DNA from: a virus
Length of the DNA stretch: 41,577 bases
Direction: 5' to 3' (one strand)
IMG/VR virus record: IMGVR_UViG_3300045988_115369
Shown here: one piece after another, positions 1 to 23,831 of the stretch
Layout: each line of letters opens with the position of its first letter
Position numbering within the stretch: the stretch's first letter is position 1
Notes under the pieces: generated by a model
Database searches by the model: none
The model's input: only the letters and a program-made list of their open reading frames with translations
What the model was told of the DNA's origin: nothing
Program-made: the position numbers and the translations under genes

Positions 1-119
1 AGACACGGCGTGCTGCTTCTTCTGCCCGTGCCTTTGCACGTCTTTCCAGTTCCAGTTCATCTTCAAGCGTGATATTTTCATAGTCCATGATATTCGTCCT
101 TTCTCTGAAAAAAAAAAAC
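1..119. repeat. Terminal direct repeat, copy 1 (identical to 41459..41577)
   Basis: Read directly. Both copies hold the first 88 nt of the RNAP CDS (ATG complement at 86..88 and 41544..41546), its RBS and an 11-nt A run. Positions 1..88 are therefore a truncated duplicate of the RNAP 5' end. Confidence 0.9.
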
Positions 120-125
120 ACACAT

Positions 126-155
126 AAGAAAAAGAGAGAACGAAAATGTTCTCTC
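126..155 (-). terminator. Hairpin plus U-tract between phage promoter phi-1 and the RNAP start codon
   Basis: Minus strand reads GAGAGAAC-AUUUUC-GUUCUCUC followed by UUUUUCUU. An 11-nt U run lies further downstream, before the RBS (AAAGGA). Confidence 0.6.
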
Positions 156-176
156 CCTCTATATGTGCCACAATTA
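154..176 (-). promoter_or_regulatory. Phage-RNAP promoter phi-1, directly upstream of the RNAP gene
   Basis: Minus strand TAATTGTGGCACATATA|GAGGGAGAG. It has the same 17-nt length and purine-rich start region as the T7 promoter TAATACGACTCACTATA|GGGAGA. Confidence 0.8.
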
Positions 177-178
177 GC

Positions 179-742
179 TTACTTGTCTATTTTATACAAA
201 ATTCTACTGCCACATGCATAATAACATCCATCATACTTATGGATACATTCAGGAAAACTTGCGGTGTCTTCTTCAAGTAAGTACAATTCATAACCGTCCA
301 TCAGCTTATTTCCTAATTCTTCGTTGTCAATACAATCAAGGAACATAGACGGTATATTTTTGAATGCATCTTTTTCGATAAGGAAGGCTGCTAATTCTGC
401 GGGGTTTCTGATATAGGTGTAGTTCTCATTCCTTCCACGCTGTACCCATCCGATCTGCCATGTCCTTGCTAAGATAAGGGAATCAAAAATACCTGCTTCT
501 GCTACGTCATCATAAACAAATGCAGCTTCAATCTGCATTGCCGTCATATCTATAAGTTTATGCAGAAACTTGATAATCATGTCTGCTTCCCAATCATCAA
601 TAGAGATGATATAGGAAGTATCATCATCTATTCCGATACGTTCATGCGGAAGATAGACAGTCAGGTATTCCCCTCTCTTGTCCGTTCTTACCCTAGCCCC
701 ACTGAATGGGAGCGTAAAATCAAAGCTATCTGTATCTAACAT
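179..742 (-). CDS. Acidic early protein, possible anti-restriction (ArdA-like C-terminal segment)
   Basis: The ORF-track stop at 179 is used. The start is moved to the ATG at 742, which lies 9 nt after AAGGAAGG. The protein is acidic; IDNEELGNKLMDG resembles the ArdA C-terminal motif. Confidence 0.55.
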   Translation of the reverse strand: MLDTDSFDFTLPFSGARVRTDKRGEYLTVYLPHERIGIDDDTSYIISIDDWEADMIIKFLHKLIDMTAMQIEAAFVYDDVAEAGIFDSLILARTWQIGWVQRGRNENYTYIRNPAELAAFLIEKDAFKNIPSMFLDCIDNEELGNKLMDGYELYLLEEDTASFPECIHKYDGCYYACGSRILYKIDK

Positions 743-761
743 GATTATCATCCTTCCTTGT

Positions 762-1358
762 CTAAAAATCCGTTCCATCTGCTAGGAACTCATAGTTTCC
801 TTCTGCTAATTCTGTACGAATGTAGTTATCACACGTATAGTATTCATAGTCAGCTTGTGCATTTTCATAAAGTCGTTCACATTCTTCTTTTCGCCATTCT
901 TCAAGGGCATCAATGAAATAGGCGTACTTCTCATCTTCTTCCATAGGGATGCCATCAATCAGTAATTCAATGTATGTATTCCACGAACGTGGATTAGAGC
1001 TAACCCATGAATACTTCGCTACACGAACTTCCCCATACTTTCTGATTTCATCAAGTACGGATGCTTTAATGCATCCTTTTGTATCAAAGTTTTTAGCTAC
1101 GTTGATTGCCATCTGTGCCGTTTCAAATTCTCCAGTGAACCCTGCCCCTGCTTCCGCATCATACATGGAAAAAGACACACTGTCTTTATCTACATTGAAC
1201 CCGTGGTCAGAAAACATGATGTCCGTGAAATCTTCACTTGTGTACTCTTCCCAATCAAGGGAATCTACCCATGTGTATCTGTACCTTTCCATTACTTCTT
1301 CCTGTACTTTCTTTTCCAGTTCATTGAATTTGTAAACTTTCTGTACTATTTCTCTCAT
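762..1358 (-). CDS. Acidic early protein, function unknown
   Basis: 198-aa ORF with RBS AAGGAAGG upstream, in the early-gene position. Confidence 0.6.
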   Translation of the reverse strand: MREIVQKVYKFNELEKKVQEEVMERYRYTWVDSLDWEEYTSEDFTDIMFSDHGFNVDKDSVSFSMYDAEAGAGFTGEFETAQMAINVAKNFDTKGCIKASVLDEIRKYGEVRVAKYSWVSSNPRSWNTYIELLIDGIPMEEDEKYAYFIDALEEWRKEECERLYENAQADYEYYTCDNYIRTELAEGNYEFLADGTDF

Positions 1359-1389
1359 GATAATTCCTTCCTTTCAAAACTGATCCCAC

Positions 1390-1785
1390 TTACTGTGCAA
1401 TTTCCAAGAAACCAAAGTCACATTCGATGAACCCATCATCCATAAGGGCATCTGCTACCTTGTCATAGTCCAGATAATCTTCTAATTTATCAAAGCTATC
1501 CCCCCAATAGCCTTCCACCCCTAACTCTTTGATTAAGTCTTCCCAATCCATTTCTTCTCTCCACCAAATTGAATGATTTGCAAGTTTTTCCAGTACTTCT
1601 TCTAAGTCATCCTGCACGTACTTAAGATACTGTTCCACGATAATCTGTTCATATTCTTCCAAGTCATCCAGTTCATCCTGTACTTCATCCGCTTTGAGAT
1701 ACGTCCAATACTTATCATCCACCGTGATTTCTTGATGATACTTGTTGATTTTGTTAAGAATATACTTATACATAGCCATTGCCAT
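1390..1785 (-). CDS. ArdA-like acidic early protein (putative anti-restriction DNA mimic)
   Basis: Very acidic. The C-terminus LEDYLDYDKVADALMDDGFIECDFGFLEI resembles the Tn916 ArdA C-terminus (NYIDYQAYGRDL...GIFEI), compared from memory. Three ATGs sit close together at the start. Confidence 0.55.
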   Translation of the reverse strand: MAMAMYKYILNKINKYHQEITVDDKYWTYLKADEVQDELDDLEEYEQIIVEQYLKYVQDDLEEVLEKLANHSIWWREEMDWEDLIKELGVEGYWGDSFDKLEDYLDYDKVADALMDDGFIECDFGFLEIAQ

Positions 1786-1812
1786 TCCACCCTTTCTTTT
1801 TAATCCTAGCCT

Positions 1813-1881
1813 GTCTCATCAGCATGGGTAGGCTATCCCCCATGGACTAGACACATCCTCTCTTGTGTGCCTAGTTTCGAC
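1813..1881 (-). ncRNA. Type II hammerhead ribozyme, copy A
   Basis: Minus-strand RNA: GUC-GAAAC-UAGGCACAC..GUGUGUCUAG-UC^-CAUGGG(GGAUAGCCUA)CCCAUG-CUGAUGA-GAC. All core nucleotides are present. Predicted cleavage falls between 1845 and 1844. Confidence 0.85.
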
Positions 1882-1882
1882 T

Positions 1883-2230
1883 TTATGCAATGAGTTCACC
1901 TGTCGTGATATCCACCACTTGTGCATGTAGCACGTCCAGTCTGTAGTTTTTGTTGTTTGCCACCATCTTTACAAGGGAAAATGGAATAATTCCATTTGTT
2001 CTACAGTGTTCATCAATGAACCATCGAATGTGTCGCCGTGTTGTCATGCTGTATAGCCCCGTGATTTCGAGACTATCCAGTGTTCCCTTGATTACAAGGG
2101 TATTGTAAGAGTACATTTCATATTCTGTAGACACATTGTCCTTGTTTGTGTCTACCCATACCGTGTAATTTTTTGTTGTGTGCTTGCCTTTTTCGATGTT
2201 GAACCATTTAAGCATTTTCATCATCCCCAC
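1883..2230 (-). CDS. Early protein, function unknown
   Basis: 115-aa ORF. The start is GTG at 2230 or ATG at 2224. The stop lies 1 nt from the 5' edge of hammerhead A. Confidence 0.6.
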   Translation of the reverse strand: MGMMKMLKWFNIEKGKHTTKNYTVWVDTNKDNVSTEYEMYSYNTLVIKGTLDSLEITGLYSMTTRRHIRWFIDEHCRTNGIIPFSLVKMVANNKNYRLDVLHAQVVDITTGELIA

Positions 2231-2462
2231 TTTCTTCTTCCTCTTCTTCTGAAATACCTAACGTCTCAAAAATCCAGTCTGAATCGAACCACATGATATC
2301 GTTTAATTCAGTTCTTCCAATTCCATCGGGATAGAGTTCTTCAATCATGTCACAAAATTCCTCCCCTTTGCCCTCTCTTTCAATACGTTCTGCCGTATCT
2401 ACAGCCCCACTCCATGCCGTTCTTCTAATGTCATTAAAATCCATTTCATCAAATACCTTCAT
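2208..2462 (-). CDS. Small acidic early protein with a poly-Glu tail
   Basis: Start moved to the ATG at 2462 (RBS AAAGGATGG). 84 aa, ending EEEEEESGDDENA. Confidence 0.55.
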   Translation of the reverse strand: MKVFDEMDFNDIRRTAWSGAVDTAERIEREGKGEEFCDMIEELYPDGIGRTELNDIMWFDSDWIFETLGISEEEEEESGDDENA

Positions 2463-2497
2463 AATAATTCCATCCTTTCTTTTTAATCCTGTAGCCT

Positions 2498-2567
2498 GTC
2501 TCATCAGAACGTGGGCGGCTATCCCACATTGACTAGACACACCCTCTCTTGTGCGTCTAGTTTCGAC
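2498..2567 (-). ncRNA. Type II hammerhead ribozyme, copy B
   Basis: Minus-strand RNA: GUC-GAAAC-UAGACGCAC(AAGAGAGG)GUGUGUCUAG-UC^-AAUGUGGG(AUAGCCG)CCCACGUU-CUGAUGA-GAC. Predicted cleavage falls between 2531 and 2530. Confidence 0.85.
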
Positions 2568-2569
2568 TT

Positions 2570-2935
2570 TTACTTGCTTTTCTTCACAAGCACAATTTTC
2601 AATTTATATGCCGTGTCTAAATGGTTGATATGGGTAACATCATCAAAGCAATATGCAACTAAGTTCCCTGCATAGTCACAACGTACCTTGAGAGTGCGCC
2701 CTGCATAAAAGCACACATCACCTTGTGCAATATCAGGTGAATCGTAACTACTGAATTTTTCAAGAATTTTGATTTCAATGCATTCCCATTTACCGTTTTC
2801 ATAACCTTCTTGCATTGCTATGAAATTTGAAATGCTGCCTTTAATCCTGCCGATAGCAAATTCATCAAACATAATCAACCCATTGTCTTTTGTCCATGTG
2901 TTCATGCCCCATGCCGTGATTTCTTTTCTTTCCAT
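2570..2935 (-). CDS. First early protein, function unknown
   Basis: Start moved to the ATG at 2935 (RBS GAAAGGAAG). The stop lies 2 nt from the 5' edge of hammerhead B. Confidence 0.6.
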   Translation of the reverse strand: MERKEITAWGMNTWTKDNGLIMFDEFAIGRIKGSISNFIAMQEGYENGKWECIEIKILEKFSSYDSPDIAQGDVCFYAGRTLKVRCDYAGNLVAYCFDDVTHINHLDTAYKLKIVLVKKSK

Positions 2936-3436
2936 GATTTTTCTTCCTTTCTGAATGTGTTCCGTTGTTCCTACACGCTTAACAAAAAAATTTGAGACAC
3001 CATCTCTTGATGGTTGGAATACCACTGATTAGTTCAATGGTTTAGAGACTAGATACAGCATGATTTCACTACCTTTCACCTACACCGTTCCATTTCATCG
3101 TCTGCGCTTGCCCCGTCATCACAAGATACCTTGCTAGACGTTGTAAGCACACACTCTATGAGACTGTCCACTACTCAGCCCTGCCGTATATCGCAAGCTA
3201 CTTTCATGACTTCTCAGTGTGTATCTTCACTGTCATGTTGCCACCGCTTTTCCCGATGACTTTCTTTTTTTCGTATGGTGTGAATTGATACTACGCATGC
3301 AGTAAGTTCACCATTCGCATTTTTCAGCTATTCAGTTTTCAAAGAACCCGATGATGTTTTGGGGTATCCCATCGCGTCACCGTCAATTTTTCGTTCTTAG
3401 TGGTATCACTTCCTTTCGTTCGTTCACTGTGCCTAC

Positions 3437-3465
3437 ATTGTAGCACGTTGTTCCTACATTGTCAA
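3437..3465 (-). promoter_or_regulatory. Host sigma-70/SigA early promoter P1
   Basis: Minus strand TTGACA, a 17-nt spacer and TACAAT, with an extended -10 TG (TGCTACAAT). Confidence 0.85.
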
Positions 3466-3654
3466 GAAGATTTTTCCTCTAGTTCTCTCTGTCGTCTTAC
3501 CATTCCGCCGTGAATACGTTGCCGTTCGCGTTCGCAATGTGCGTTGTTCTGAGTTCTTCCACCACGCTATCCATACATGTGCTACAGATAGCATTTTCAG
3601 AATCGGGGCGGTGCGCCTTGCGGTGTTCCGTCCGTGTCATCCTTGACTGTCCAT

Positions 3655-3683
3655 ATTGTATCATGATGTTCCTACACCGTCAA
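3655..3683 (-). promoter_or_regulatory. Host sigma-70/SigA early promoter P2
   Basis: Minus strand TTGACG, a 17-nt spacer and TACAAT, with an extended -10 TG (TGATACAAT). The spacer is a paralog of the P1 spacer. Confidence 0.85.
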
Positions 3684-3825
3684 GGATAAATTTGCATTTC
3701 TTTGTGGAGAAATTTTGTTCGCATGGTATACCATACCCCCGTAGGGTATCCATGATTGTCAACCATGGCATGCTAGTAGCACGTTAGTAGTAAGAGATTA
3801 AATCTTACAAGTACATATATAGGCA

Positions 3826-3847
3826 AACAGGGCTTGCTCGCCCTGTT
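3826..3847. terminator. 8-bp GC-rich hairpin between the integrase region and the early control region
   Basis: AACAGGGC-TTGCTC-GCCCTGTT. The minus strand continues with TTTGCC. Confidence 0.4.
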
Positions 3848-3862
3848 CCATTTAAGTATAAT
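3834..3862 (+). promoter_or_regulatory. Candidate host-type promoter for the integrase
   Basis: Plus strand TTGCTC, a 17-nt spacer and TATAAT. The -10 sits inside the palindrome GTATAATA-A-TATTATAC. Confidence 0.4.
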
Positions 3863-4005
3863 AATATTATACTAATACATTCCACCCTGCCCCAGCGATA
3901 ACGGCGAGCGCGTGGAGGGTACGGGGGAAAACAGCCGGGGCAATTTTAATGAATACCCTTTCACAATTTTTATAATTTTTTGTTTTAAGAAGGAGGAACA
4001 TCATC

Positions 4006-5160
4006 ATGAAAAGACAAAGGGCACCACGAGGGCAAGGAAGTATCACACCATACGGAGATGGAAAATTCAAAGGCATCATCACCATTGGATACAAACTAGA
4101 TCCAGTGACGAAGAAGAATAAACGTCTCACAAAAACCTTTACAGGAAAGACAAGGAAAGAAGTTCAAGCAAAGATCACTGAGTATCAGTACAAAGTAAAT
4201 GCAGGGAAGATCAATCCATTGGCAGCTCCCCTTACATTCAAACAGTACAGTGAACGATGGTTAATGATGAAAAAGACAACACTGAAACCACAGACATACA
4301 GAAACTATGAGAGTAATATGCAGTGTCTTGATTTTGGCAACAAAGTGATGAAAGACATAACAGTTTCAGACGTCAACACGCTGCTCCTAACATTGCTACA
4401 GACACTCTCCCCTGCCACTGTACGAGGAAGGCACACCCTATTGAAAAGTGTCTTTGAAGGAGCAAGAAAGGAAAAACTCATTATAGAGAATCCTGTAGAA
4501 GACAGCATGCGTATCAAGGCACAGGTAGATCACACTGTGACAGAAATGCATGTCTTAACGAAAGAAGAGAGTACGAATGTTCTATTAAAAGCTAAGGAGA
4601 TGAAAGCTCCCATATGGTTCTACCCTCTGATACGTACTGCCTTAGAGACAGGGATGAGAAAAGGAGAGCTGCGTGCCTTACAGTACAAAGCACTGGGTAA
4701 AGACACCATCTATATAAAAGCAAGTGTAGAAGACAGTGCAGGGAAAGGGGCAACTCTCACAACGCCTAAGACACGTGCCTCTGTAAGGAGAATACATGTG
4801 TCTACATCACTCATTGAGATACTACAGGCTCTTCCCCATAAAGATGAAAACAGTTTTGTCTTTCACACTAAGAATGAGACTTTAATTGCTAATAGTGATA
4901 TACAGTACTACTTTAATACGCTAAAGAAAGTAAGTAACATAGACAAACCACTTCACTTCCACGATCTAAGACACACCCATGCCACCCTTCTTATCATGGC
5001 AGGTGTGAACATCAAGACCGTCTCTACTCGCCTAGGTCACGCATCTGTATCCATCACGTTAAACAGGTACACACACGCCCTTCCGCAGCAAGATAAAGAA
5101 GCTAGTGAAATGATTTGTAGTATGCTACTATCGGATACTACGATGAAAGACAATCAGTAA
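4006..5160 (+). CDS. int: Tyrosine recombinase / phage integrase
   Basis: RBS AGGAGG lies 8 nt upstream. The N-terminal Arm-type DNA-binding segment is GSITPYGDGKFKG...GKTRKEVQAKI. Catalytic motifs are HDLRHTHAT and LGHASVSITLNRYTH. It is the only plus-strand gene. Confidence 0.95.
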   Translation: MKRQRAPRGQGSITPYGDGKFKGIITIGYKLDPVTKKNKRLTKTFTGKTRKEVQAKITEYQYKVNAGKINPLAAPLTFKQYSERWLMMKKTTLKPQTYRNYESNMQCLDFGNKVMKDITVSDVNTLLLTLLQTLSPATVRGRHTLLKSVFEGARKEKLIIENPVEDSMRIKAQVDHTVTEMHVLTKEESTNVLLKAKEMKAPIWFYPLIRTALETGMRKGELRALQYKALGKDTIYIKASVEDSAGKGATLTTPKTRASVRRIHVSTSLIEILQALPHKDENSFVFHTKNETLIANSDIQYYFNTLKKVSNIDKPLHFHDLRHTHATLLIMAGVNIKTVSTRLGHASVSITLNRYTHALPQQDKEASEMICSMLLSDTTMKDNQ

Positions 5161-5212: not shown

Positions 5213-5261
5213 AAATACCGTATGACATAATATCGTCCTTATTAACAGACATACGGTATTT
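5213..5261. terminator. 12-bp inverted repeat between the convergent int and membrane-protein genes
   Basis: AAATACCGTATG, 25 nt, CATACGGTATTT, then TTCTG. The loop is large for a classical terminator. Confidence 0.4.
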
Positions 5262-5310: not shown

Positions 5311-5910
5311 TTAAAATCTAATCTTATAACTTGCTTGAAATCCATCAACTTTGTTGTCTTTGACATTCAGTTGGAAAGACACCCCTTTATTGTACCCAAA
5401 ATTCCTTTGTACTTCAATGGGAACGTACCATTCATTAGACACCCTTCCTATCCCAGCACCCACTTCCCACTTGTGCTTCTTTTCGTAGTCTTTGAAGATT
5501 GGTGTGAGGTCTAGCGTTTGATCGACACGTGCAGTGGTGGGAGTGGAAGTAGTAGAGGATGAAGGAGAAAGAGGTGTGTCTTTTAATGTTTTTTTAATGT
5601 ACTTATCTTTAACTGGTATCTGAATGTCATTACCATTGATGACTGCATGATAGTGGTTATTCAGAATCAAATCTGGATCAGACGTATTGGTTTTACTTGC
5701 TGCTGTTATTTCAGTAGTCAAAGAGGGTGAAGTATAAGAATCTGTAGTTGTAGTTGTTTTTGTTGTTCCTTCTTTATACCCTTTATCATACCCATAATGA
5801 TAAATCATTGTTGTTGTTCCAATAAAGAAAATCATCAGAATAATAACAATAAGGATATTTCTTTTATTTATATCATTAAAATCAATCACTTTAGAATCAC
5901 CTATTTTCAT
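5311..5910 (-). CDS. Membrane-anchored Thr/Ser-rich protein with an OMP-like C-terminus
   Basis: Start at ATG 5910 (the ORF track uses GTG at 5952). It has an N-terminal TM helix (ILIVIILMIFFIGTTTMI), a T/S-rich linker, and ends with the alternating pattern GFQASYKIRF and a terminal Phe. Confidence 0.6.
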   Translation of the reverse strand: MKIGDSKVIDFNDINKRNILIVIILMIFFIGTTTMIYHYGYDKGYKEGTTKTTTTTDSYTSPSLTTEITAASKTNTSDPDLILNNHYHAVINGNDIQIPVKDKYIKKTLKDTPLSPSSSTTSTPTTARVDQTLDLTPIFKDYEKKHKWEVGAGIGRVSNEWYVPIEVQRNFGYNKGVSFQLNVKDNKVDGFQASYKIRF

Positions 5911-6088
5911 TCTCAATACTGTAATAAAGGATGTAGACCTTCGGTGTGTCACATTGAAAGTTCTAATAGTTTACACACATAGTGATTCACATGCTATACC
6001 TAGTGCAGGAAACATATATCTCTTATTTCATAGAGTTCCAAGTTACAGAAACAAGAGATACATGTATATAATATAGATTCCCTCAGTC

Positions 6089-6162: not shown

Positions 6163-7959
6163 CTAGAGTTGTCTTTTATATGAAACTTTCTCCGCTGTGT
6201 TTAGATCCTTTAACATTGCCAGTTTCACCTTGCTATAGTTCTCTCTGCCAACAGGTCTAGGGTTTGTCTGATTCAGTTCTGGAATATAGAAGATACCTCT
6301 GTCTGGGTCATCCCATTGTTCAAGTAATTCATCAAGCTGCTCATCCATCCCTGTTTGATAATCCCTATCCATAGAGTTAGCAAAGAACTCTACAGCCATA
6401 GTGACAGCATCCAGTCTATCATCATGAGCAAGTGCCCCTCTTTCATTGGTGAGACGTGTCATTTGATAGATTAAAGAATAGTTAGGACTAGATTCATACG
6501 TCTTATAGTCAGCAGTGATTACCCCTTTATTGACAATGAGCTTGTGTCTCATCATAACAGGTTCAAGGGTGTCTATAATACGCTGTTCCTTCTGTGCCTT
6601 ACTTCTGATTTCTTCCAAAGCACATGGATAGATTCTGGTAAAGATAGGAGCAAGAAGTTTGCCAAACATACCATCACCAAAGTTAGATTCATAGACAACT
6701 GTGTTGACCTTCCAGAACTTAGCTTTGTTAGCCAGTGTCTCCAATGTGTTATCGCTGTAACCAGAGGTATAACCACCACTTTCCATCAAGAACAAATAGC
6801 CATTAAGGTATTTGATGATTGCATATGCTGTTTCATCCTTACCACGTCCAGATGGGTCAATAGCCATAACTGTTCCAGTGTATTCAGCTGTTTCTGGGGA
6901 CTGCAAGAGAGGAGAATAGAAGTAGTCACCTTTAAGAGCAACAGACGCAATGTCTTTCCATCTCTTTGTAGGATCAGCAGTCCAAGACCATTTTAGACTA
7001 GCTTCATTCATGTCCAAATCCGCTACAATCAAGTCCTGGACTTTAAGTGGATACTTCTCTGCATCAGATAGATTCGTACTGAGCATGAACTGAAGAGCAA
7101 ACCCAGCCTTACCATAAGACAGTTTACGCTTCTCAATTTCCTCTAGATTGAATCTATCAGGGTCTGTAGGTATGCACTTATCAGCATAAAACTCTGGGTC
7201 TGTATCATAAGAATCTGCGATAAAGGGGGCTAAATCATCCCCATATGCCTCTCTTTCTTCTGTAGATGCTGGATATAAGACAGGCCAGATGCATCTGCTA
7301 TAACCACGTTTAGTTAATTCATTATAGAGACTCATTTCATTCTGAGGAGTTCCCAAATAAATGATTTTACCACCAGGTTTTAAGATTGCATCAAATTCCT
7401 TTACAGCCTCTCCTAGTTTATCCCTCTGTATCTGAGTGCCTGAATTTTTAGGTACTTCTACGTCATCAGCAATCAGAATGTCTGCACGAGAACCTGTAAT
7501 CTGCCCTGTGATCCCTACAGACTTTACAGAAGGAGAAATATCAGGAACAGCAGGGCCGACATCAAATAGATTCTGGGTATCTCGCTGTCCTCGCTGTGTC
7601 TGTAAATGCTGCAAGAAAGGTATCAAGTAAATAATACGTTTAATAAAAATAGCATTCGCATCTGCTCTATGTTTAGATGCAGATACAACTAATACCTTTA
7701 ATTGAGGGTCTTTCCAAAGCATCCAAACTGTGTAAGCACAAGTCAAAAAAGACTTTGCTACCCCACGGAAGCCCTCAACGATACTTCGGTCTGTAGGGGT
7801 GTTCATAAGGTACTTTGCAATATCATATTGGATAGGTGTAGGGTCTGGAAGACTAATAGATTTCCAGACAATGAACACAAAGATACGAAAGTCCTCATGC
7901 GCCCTTTTAATTTGATCTTCTGTCCAGCATGCTTCTGTAAAATCAGTTAAGTCGATCAA
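6163..7959 (-). CDS. terL: Terminase large subunit (T7 gp19-like)
   Basis: 598 aa. Walker A-like GFRGVAKS, the ADDVE segment, a C-terminal nuclease region, and the T7 gene position. Confidence 0.93.
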   Translation of the reverse strand: MIDLTDFTEACWTEDQIKRAHEDFRIFVFIVWKSISLPDPTPIQYDIAKYLMNTPTDRSIVEGFRGVAKSFLTCAYTVWMLWKDPQLKVLVVSASKHRADANAIFIKRIIYLIPFLQHLQTQRGQRDTQNLFDVGPAVPDISPSVKSVGITGQITGSRADILIADDVEVPKNSGTQIQRDKLGEAVKEFDAILKPGGKIIYLGTPQNEMSLYNELTKRGYSRCIWPVLYPASTEEREAYGDDLAPFIADSYDTDPEFYADKCIPTDPDRFNLEEIEKRKLSYGKAGFALQFMLSTNLSDAEKYPLKVQDLIVADLDMNEASLKWSWTADPTKRWKDIASVALKGDYFYSPLLQSPETAEYTGTVMAIDPSGRGKDETAYAIIKYLNGYLFLMESGGYTSGYSDNTLETLANKAKFWKVNTVVYESNFGDGMFGKLLAPIFTRIYPCALEEIRSKAQKEQRIIDTLEPVMMRHKLIVNKGVITADYKTYESSPNYSLIYQMTRLTNERGALAHDDRLDAVTMAVEFFANSMDRDYQTGMDEQLDELLEQWDDPDRGIFYIPELNQTNPRPVGRENYSKVKLAMLKDLNTAEKVSYKRQL

Positions 7960-23755: not shown

Positions 23756-23831
23756 TGGTGTCTCTTTAAGGACTTGAACCTTAAACCTTCTGGGCATGAA
23801 CCAGATGCTCTAACCATTGAGCTAAAGAGAC
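23756..23831 (-). tRNA. tRNA with anticodon CAU (elongator Met or Ile2 type), CCA encoded
   Basis: The 76-nt sequence folds by hand as a cloverleaf: acceptor GTCTCTT/AAGAGAC, D arm GCTC/GAGC, anticodon arm TCTGG-TTCATGC-CCAGA, T arm TAAGG-TTCAAGT-CCTTA, discriminator A, then CCA. It is not initiator-like: the 1:72 pair is G:C and there is no triple G:C in the anticodon stem. Confidence 0.93.

Follow-up and report, generated by a model that had tools for sequence, protein, structure and literature searches.

Why does a short sequence recur unchanged at the early promoters of a T7-like phage that encodes its own RNA polymerase (RNAP)? The sequence in question, TGTAGGAACA (referred to as the 10-mer), was noticed in the IMG/VR virus record IMGVR_UViG_3300045988_115369, a stretch of 41,577 nucleotides that was analysed as a whole and is called the window in this text. 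Its copies are found at host-type promoters, before the first early gene and next to two small genes coding for ribbon-helix-helix (RHH) proteins, RHH1 and RHH2. The 10-mer is a real and very probably functional feature. Judging by its co-variation with the RHH proteins in related genomes, we regard it as the probable operator of a phage-encoded RHH repressor system with heteroimmune classes.

Copies of the 10-mer and their placement

A preliminary description of this DNA had listed four minus-strand copies of the 10-mer and held them to be beyond chance. Both statements were confirmed by exact counting. TGTAGGAACA has exactly four matches in the window, all on the minus strand, while shuffled sequences contain 0.09 copies on average and none of 100 shuffles reaches four. 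The 9-mer core GTAGGAACA finds the same four sites (0.34 expected). When up to one mismatch is allowed, nine matches are obtained, including the four exact copies, against 3.7 expected; one-mismatch copies elsewhere are thus at chance level. The four sites and the promoters associated with them are as follows.

3655-3683, minus strand: P1, host sigma-70-type promoter, TTGACG-17-TACAAT with TG before the -10; 10/12 match; kept in all relatives
3667-3676, minus strand: 10-mer copy in the P1 spacer, beginning 1 nt past the -35
3437-3465, minus strand: P2, host sigma-70-type promoter, TTGACA-17-TACAAT with TG before the -10; 11/12 match
3449-3458, minus strand: 10-mer copy in the P2 spacer, exact match
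2966-2975, minus strand: site D, 10-mer after a T-run, 30 nt ahead of the start codon (ATG, 2935) of the first early gene
38972-38981, minus strand: site C, 10-mer immediately 3' of the RNAP stop codon TGA (38984-38982), 2 nt upstream of the P3 -35
38941-38969, minus strand: P3, host sigma-70-type promoter upstream of the RHH pair; 11/12 match

P1 is laid out as TTGACG(3683-3678)-g-TGTAGGAACA-tcatga-TACAAT(3660-3655) and P2 as TTGACA(3465-3460)-a-TGTAGGAACA-acgtgc-TACAAT(3442-3437). P3, with the layout TTGACA(38969-38964)-17-TACAAT(38946-38941) and TG preceding the -10, stands 33 nt upstream of the RHH1 ATG. These three promoters are the top three minus-strand sigma-70-type matches in positions 1-40000. 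The sequence thus bears out the placement described previously, that is, in the spacer 1 nt from the -35 at P1 and P2, 2 nt upstream of the -35 at P3, and just before the first early gene in the fourth case. The claim that the 10-mer is confined to host-promoter positions holds for P1, P2 and P3 but not for site D, whose setting is a degenerate promoter-shaped module (TTAAGC-g-10mer-N6-CACATT). All four copies are located on the transcribed strand, and the site is non-palindromic. At all sites YACA follows 7-10 nt downstream of the 10-mer, each promoter having one class-specific copy (see below), and site D shows a second partial repeat (GGAACA or GGATACA).

Motif classes and the RHH pair

We wondered if the 10-mer also occurs at corresponding positions in related phages, a comparison that the preliminary description had proposed. 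The loci compared comprised 60 from IMG/VR (anchored on RNAP), 22 from metagenomes (anchored on RHH1) and three from genomes; both the early region and the RHH region are present in 21 of the compared genomes. In these 21, the 10-mer present at P1, P2, D and C varies from class to class without a shift in register. Its position represents a swappable cassette, TG-N5-ACA, with fixed ends, variable centre and conserved surroundings.

Three classes were distinguished. Class 1, to which the window and nine other genomes belong, has [T/C]GTAGGAACA at P1, P2, D and C, with TGTGGGAACA at C in L016. Class 2 consists of nine genomes, including a prophage of Dialister, and carries TGGATACAC[A/G] at P1 (TGGCTACACG in L006), TGGATACACA at P2, TGG[C/A/T]TACACA at D and aGGATACACA at C. 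Class 3 is represented by L002 and L088, which come from separate collections; TGGGAGTACA is found at P1 and P2, and TGTAC[G/A]CACA (TGTACGCACA or TGTACACACA) at D and C. In classes 1 and 3, site C is centred at about -42 relative to P3; in class 2 it is displaced upstream by approximately one helical turn, and an imperfect inverted copy covers the -10.

Differences between classes are confined to a few positions. A 419-column alignment of the P1-P2 region contains 10 columns that tell classes 1 and 2 apart; all of them fall within the two 10-mers or next to these, and at the P2 copy the differences correspond exactly to 10-mer positions 3, 5, 6 and 7. In the D region, nine of ten discriminating columns lie within approximately 10 nt of the cassette, the tenth being the final alignment column. 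The leader variant, the first early gene and the other early genes are, on the other hand, shuffled relative to class. Because class-specific columns are confined to the cassettes while the flanks are shuffled, relics of duplication and plain linkage are ruled out as their origin; to judge from the alignments, the cassettes behave like matched recognition sites. Site C matches the class of the adjoining RHH genes at every locus.

A one-mismatch copy of the 10-mer, TGTAGGCACA, is found at the P2 start site (3428-3437, minus strand). It was considered as a class-specific second subsite and rejected, since class 1 and class 2 keep it alike. Being conserved in relatives irrespective of motif class, this near copy is not class-specific and probably stands outside the class-specific system. 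A second D-like module (D2) precedes another early gene in four relatives (L002:3884, L016:3917, L006:4297 and L073:8667). It consists of a T-run, GKTAAGTG, CGGATGTACA, N6 and TACAT, and contains a perfect 11-bp hairpin. D2 is built like site D. It shows no class specificity, and it was not detected in the window.

The whole arrangement has a limited distribution. Relatives with RNAP 61% identical possess a single RHH gene after RNAP and no shared spacer cassette, and in relatives with RNAP at most 53% identical no RHH gene was found after RNAP; the system formed by 10-mer and RHH proteins is therefore limited to one clade. Scanning IMG/VR with a DNA pattern for promoters resembling P2 retrieved only contigs already in our set and one short contig. 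A fourth class with TGGGAGTACA at site C, which could explain class 3, was sought in the loci and in IMG/VR, and none was found.

The proteins encoded next to site C are the following.

38728-38907, minus strand: RHH1, 59-aa RHH protein with beta-strand CSVRVRIN; Pfam RelB 2.1e-8, RHH_9 9e-6
38538-38708, minus strand: RHH2, 56-aa paralogue of RHH1 with beta-strand AEIKIRIT; Pfam RelB 1.9e-6

The two paralogues share 34-39% identity, and the Shine-Dalgarno sequence of RHH2 overlaps the stop codon of RHH1. Both match repressor families of PHROGs, and a profile search against PDB yielded a RelB match (1.9e-5); TALE matches in the same search were discarded as repeat artefacts. The AlphaFold2 model of RHH2 (pLDDT 81.5) displays an extended N-terminus and two helices. 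Its best-ranked Foldseek matches are CopA(SO), ORF56, Arc, CopG and PutA with TM of 0.5-0.8, their E-values being weak because the protein is short. RHH1 and RHH2 are of the ribbon-helix-helix fold. Hydrophobic and polar or basic residues alternate in their N-terminal strands (S-V-R-V-R-I-N in RHH1, E-I-K-I-R-I-T in RHH2), and likeness to Arc, CopG and omega indicates which of these residues would face outward.

We asked which genes follow the motif classes. Open reading frames (ORFs) in the window from approximately 1 to 5160 and from 7900 to 41546 were compared by tblastn. RHH1 is the sole ORF compared that separates by class (90-99%, 79% and 60-68% identity). Its beta-strand reads CSVRVRIN, VSLRIRIN and VSINVRVN in classes 1, 2 and 3, respectively, and that of RHH2 reads AEIKIRIT, AQFRLRIS and VRIKIRLT; both fit the motif class at every locus. 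This holds even for L009 and L015, where the C-terminal half of RHH2 is of another type and the strand is still that of class 1. The presumed outward-facing residues of RHH2 differ in all three classes (E-K-R-T, Q-R-R-S and R-K-R-T), while those of RHH1 are S-R-R-N in classes 1 and 2 and S-N-R-N in class 3 only.

Other candidates do not follow class. The RNAP gene occurs in two lineages of approximately 76% nucleotide identity that cross the classes, alpha being found with classes 1 and 3 and beta with classes 1 and 2. The integrase is 97-99% identical across all of them. No MarR, helix-turn-helix (HTH) or other DNA-binding regulator besides the RHH pair was found among the ORFs scanned, nor is there a plausible ORF between the integrase gene and P1. 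Since the RHH proteins co-vary with motif class, we assign the sites to the RHH pair as their putative reader. The proposal made in the preliminary description, that the 10-mer is the operator of a phage RHH regulator acting on host-type promoters, thereby gains strong support from 21 genomes. A protein search for further RHH relatives retrieved 37 close relatives only; one new type of RHH1 (P0032) was among them, again in a chromosomal cassette of the kind described next.

RHH genes were also encountered outside phage genomes. L077-L081, L090, L091 and L098-L100 are bacterial chromosome contigs, recognised by guaA, transporters and SurE, with one to three tandem mini-cassettes. Each mini-cassette consists of an RNAP 3' end (60-260 nt), a C 10-mer matched in class, P3, RHH1, RHH2 and a phage-type promoter. 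Mini-cassettes of different classes are found side by side (e.g. L081:390-3170) with a duplicated EamA 3' end between them, and the arrays terminate in a true attR. Retention and stacking of the C-P3-RHH1-RHH2 module are as expected of a trans-acting immunity function.

A possible lysogeny switch and its alternatives

What would such a system control? The window is a temperate T7-like phage with an integrase, and a relative is integrated as a prophage. Positions 1-117 of the window recur at its other end (41461-41577), so that the assembly is circular with approximately 41.46 kb. The minus strand carries nearly all genes, which are arranged in T7 order; a T7-type SSB is encoded, as are endonuclease I and a virion assembly protein. 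The features that bear on the switch are listed here.

38982-41546, minus strand: T7-type single-subunit RNAP, 854 aa, 36% identity to T7-like phage RNAPs
149-176, minus strand: phage-type promoter (TAATTGTGGCAC...) of repeat family D1, directly upstream of the RNAP gene
160-129, minus strand: 13-bp hairpin formed by the first bases transcribed from this promoter, then a T-run
4006-5160, plus strand: tyrosine integrase, Pfam Phage_integrase 4e-26

The isolated phages nearest by RNAP are only 36% identical, and a nucleotide search of the early region against GenBank phages gave no match. The class 2 prophage L073, with RNAP 78% identical to that of the window, lies within a 2.5-Mb contig of Dialister sp. 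i34-0019-2H8, its integrase gene adjoined by a host MatE gene. Because L073 sits inside a Dialister contig, the phage group can be regarded as temperate and its host as a gut Negativicute.

Sequence comparison is what leads us to infer the binding, repression, autoregulation, lysogeny role and pairing of paralogues with sites that make up the following scheme. The host-type promoter P3 would produce RHH1 and RHH2. An RHH dimer, composed of one paralogue or both, would bind the spacer 10-mers of P1 and P2 and exclude host RNA polymerase, and an RHH protein on site D would provide a second barrier ahead of the first early gene. The five central bases of TG-N5-ACA would set specificity. With the early operon silenced, phage RNAP would not be made and the entire regulon of phage promoters would be off. 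Site C, located beside the P3 -35, would let the system regulate its own synthesis with either sign; autorepression of P3 seems as plausible as activation or sparing. Exchange of the 5-bp core together with the RHH beta-strands among relatives would give rise to heteroimmune classes, each immune only to its own kind.

Silencing of P1 and P2 had been put forward in the preliminary description as a simple lysogeny switch, acting by arrest of RNAP synthesis. The lysogeny part agrees with the integrase and with the Dialister prophage; the notion that RNAP is synthesised simply from P1 and P2 does not stand, as the hairpin with its T-run and the phage-type promoter directly precede the RNAP gene. 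No 10-mer copy is found near 129-176, the nearest being D, approximately 2.8 kb upstream. Since the RNAP gene has its own phage-type promoter behind the hairpin and T-run, the switch would set the repressor against an autocatalytic RNAP loop. We propose that the hairpin insulates this loop from P1/P2 read-through, as has been hypothesised for phage LUZ100. The circuit may thus be bistable, settling on either the repressor or the autocatalytic polymerase.

The mini-cassette arrays may be domesticated islands of immunity, with arrayed repressors serving in defence. Up to three classes, each with a phage-type promoter 3' of it, would confer heritable immunity to the phage family, possibly boosted by infection. 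The paralogues, in turn, may split their targets into promoter sites and D/C sites, as in class 3. Relative to class 1, RHH2 of class 3 is changed at one outward residue and TGTACGCACA differs from TGTAGGAACA at two bases; class 3 alone also has a separate P1/P2 motif. This suggests the hypothesis that D/C-type sites are read by RHH2 and that RHH1 is able to recognise the promoter type, which leaves classes 1 and 2 unexplained. Taken as a whole, the broader picture, in which Dialister T7-like phages maintain lysogeny through a paralogous RHH pair with a swappable 5-bp core and split targets, and hosts capture the modules as chromosomal immunity arrays, is put forward only tentatively.

Several points weigh against an RHH repressor acting through the 10-mer. 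Genomes of class 3 have two different 10-mers, one at P1/P2 and one at D/C. For this reason a single reader of all four sites is not general, and the "one protein" of the preliminary description is called into question. RHH1 shows no difference in outward residues between classes 1 and 2 though the motifs differ at four of five core positions. RHH operators typically comprise at least two subsites, while here a single class-specific copy is present per promoter. As site C adjoins the RHH genes, the match between C and RHH taken alone could be explained by linkage, and the RNAP lineage swap could be a single event. The hexamers of P3 are consensus, so P3 needs no activator. Finally, the terminase (6163-7959) and ORF 5311-5952 lie outside the comparison by which genes were tracked with class.

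Some of these points are shared by competing explanations. If the class-specific 10-mer were read by another phage protein or by a strain-specific host factor, the constancy of RHH1 between classes 1 and 2 and the linkage of C with RHH would be accounted for; the terminase, ORF 5311-5952 and the early proteins without known function leave room for such a reader. We judge this improbable. In the approximately 36 kb compared, no ORF but RHH separates by class, and integrase and RNAP are excluded as neither follows it. The beta-strand of RHH2 follows class even in recombinant RHH2 alleles, and cassettes of all three classes are present in a single bacterial chromosome (L081), so that the classes share a host; this argues against a factor of the host strain. 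A somewhat better case, though still an unlikely one, can be made for lytic timing instead of lysogeny: the RHH pair would shut off early transcription by host polymerase after takeover by RNAP, immunity being a side effect. T7 does shut off its early transcription, and its genes 1.1 and 1.2 occupy the position right after RNAP. The RHH genes similarly lie directly 3' of the RNAP gene, where phage RNAP could also read them from the promoter at 176-149, and their products (56-59 aa) have no recognisable domain for sensing induction. However, the RHH pair has a consensus host-type promoter, P3, to itself, as prophage expression requires, and among the ORFs scanned there is no other candidate for a maintenance repressor. 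Integrated prophages exist, and chromosomal remnants keep precisely the C-P3-RHH1-RHH2 cassette. Roles in lytic timing and in lysogeny are, moreover, not mutually exclusive.

The 10-mer might instead act as RNA, as a signal for processing or translation control between early genes; in T7, RNase III sites lie between the early genes. Every copy has the sense orientation, and two of them, D and C, lie between genes. The 10-mer forms the 5' arm of a strong hairpin at class 3 site D and in module D2 (free energy, dG, -18.4 and -19.3; z approximately -5), and the class 2 10-mer of C lies within a hairpin of more than 20 bp (dG -30, z -7.6). We nevertheless consider an RNA role very improbable. At site D of the window (class 1) there is no significant hairpin (z +0.84), that of class 2 is marginal (z -1.75), and a hairpin as common function of the 10-mers was rejected for its absence from the window's site D. 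Furthermore, the P1 copy is upstream of the P1 start with no convincing promoter preceding it, class-specific columns at P1/P2 are confined to the promoter spacer, D2 has the hairpin yet shows no class specificity, and a class-specific partner complementary to the 10-mer was not seen. Least credible of all is a relic of promoter duplication or chance, with P1 and P2 as duplicates and the other two copies as coincidence. P1 and P2 are indeed 74% identical over 46 nt (repeat family D14), and D resembles a decayed copy of the same module; there are, however, four copies where 0.09 would be expected, and the duplication is older than the classes, yet in every class the copies at P1, P2, D and C were altered in concert and their flanks were not. 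Mere promoter duplication, which the preliminary description had kept as its fallback, is contradicted by this pattern.

Two further candidates were dismissed. The 10-mer is no promoter of phage RNAP: the consensus of the window's phage promoter repeat family, TAATTGTGGCACGTAGAAGG, is unrelated, and RNAP lineage is independent of motif class. Arm sites of the integrase were rejected on the grounds that the integrase is nearly identical in all classes while the motif differs. Against this reading also stands the position of attP (~5240-5255), downstream of the integrase gene and at least 1.6 kb from the nearest 10-mer copy.

Known systems and accessory elements

An RHH repressor acting through the 10-mer would resemble several known systems without matching any of them. 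P22 Arc/Mnt, CopG and omega of inc18 plasmids are likewise small RHH proteins (~45-70 aa) that read DNA by the N-terminal beta-strand; their operators overlap or abut the -35/-10, and autoregulation is usual. Omega dimers recognise short units of 7 bp that are non-palindromic and share one orientation. In contrast to these systems, the window has two tandem paralogous RHH genes and a single class-specific 10-bp unit per promoter instead of arrays or palindromes, and its relatives have swapped the specificity core together with the beta-strands. Sequence similarity of the RHH pair to Arc/Mnt, CopG and omega is below detection, the only sequence matches being RHH domains of RelB-type antitoxins.

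In lambda, one regulatory protein, CI, is set on the early lytic promoters and on a site at its own promoter, and lambdoid relatives exchange the immunity module. The window is similar in having sites at early promoters and at about -42 of the regulator's own promoter, with a module exchanged among relatives. It differs from the OR/OL system in the fold of the candidate regulators and in lacking tripartite cooperative operators and an evident RecA-sensitive domain; the lytic programme of the window phage uses its own RNA polymerase.

Mycobacteriophages of Cluster A employ a repressor of L5 gp71 type with an operator at Pleft and additional stoperators (PMC6550527, PMC9283540). Here too, a short asymmetric site is found in the early lytic promoter and in intergenic positions, mainly in one orientation, and repressor and site motif co-vary among relatives with distinct immune specificities (PMC6550527, PMC9283540). 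Unlike the window's candidates, an RHH pair with no HTH match in the ORFs scanned, gp71 is a monomeric helix-turn-helix protein, and stoperators are many per genome where the window has only four exact sites.

T7-like phages were long regarded as strictly lytic. A hypothetical MarR-based lysis/lysogeny switch, put forward for the temperate T7-like phages LUZ100 and those of Agrobacterium and Pelagibacter, is the one model published so far of how such phages establish and keep lysogeny (PMC10134795). Those phages resemble the window in their T7-like genome, which includes an integrase gene, and in their early promoters of host type. The resemblance extends to a phage-type promoter immediately before the RNAP gene, with a terminator through which transcription has to pass, and to the logic of a repressor opposed to autocatalytic RNAP (PMC10134795). 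The window differs in that no MarR-like or HTH regulator is present among the ORFs scanned, the candidate repressors are encoded after the RNAP gene and not beside the integrase, and the sites are on host-type early promoters and not around the promoter of the RNAP gene. The 10-bp candidate operator on two consensus early promoters, with two tiny candidate repressors, would represent a different and directly testable solution. Three natural specificity classes provide ready-made swap controls, and a cultured lysogen, Dialister sp. i34-0019-2H8, exists. Orthogonal operator/RHH pairs together with the pair of phage RNAP and promoter are potential parts of gene circuits for gut Firmicutes. If chromosomal arrays do act as immunity islands, they would be a simple and overlooked route to phage resistance in a common gut genus.

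Several other elements were noted in the window. The -10 of P3 is enclosed by a further repeat, situated shortly past the RNAP stop codon.

38931-38958, minus strand: 10-bp inverted repeat ACACACCTAT / ATAGGTGTGT around the P3 -10; dG -23.6, z -3.2

Its arms co-vary between genomes, a compensatory change to ACACGCCTAT / ATAGGCGTGT being present in L009 and L015. The class 2 counterpart (e.g. L003:8140-8190) is a 15-21-bp hairpin with the -35 in its loop (dG -30, z -7.6). The inverted repeat could be a second operator, an RNA processing site, a terminator or a hairpin ending the RNAP message.

The probable core of attP is found around TTAATAAGG, in the interval from the integrase gene to ORF 5311-5952. 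At ~5240-5255, homology to the left junction of the Dialister prophage and to the right junction of the chromosomal remnants breaks off. No tRNA that might serve as integration target was found near the 10-mer sites, the sole tRNA of the window being a tRNA-Met gene among the structural genes (23756-23831, minus strand). Rfam searches of the whole window at gathering threshold and of the early region at E<=1 gave, apart from tRNA-Met, one chance hit only.

A DNA methyltransferase (37218-37898, minus strand; PHROG 757, 6.5e-35) is encoded just 3' of the RHH module. It is a variable accessory gene, found in only some of the relatives. The leader at 2988-3429 (minus strand), approximately 440 untranslated nucleotides from the P2 start to D, is nearly invariant in 14 genomes and more conserved than the adjoining genes; it has no Rfam match, and only a single compensatory pair bears on a possible structure. 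Leaders of L002, L006 and L011 have a longer alternative middle section. Upstream of P1, a block at 3700-3790 (minus strand; CCATGGTTGACAATCATGGATACCCTACGGGGGTATGGTATACCATGCGAAC) is highly conserved and contains several short inverted repeats as well as a TTGACA with no usable -10. This block could be a genome end, an origin or the region of the integrase promoter.

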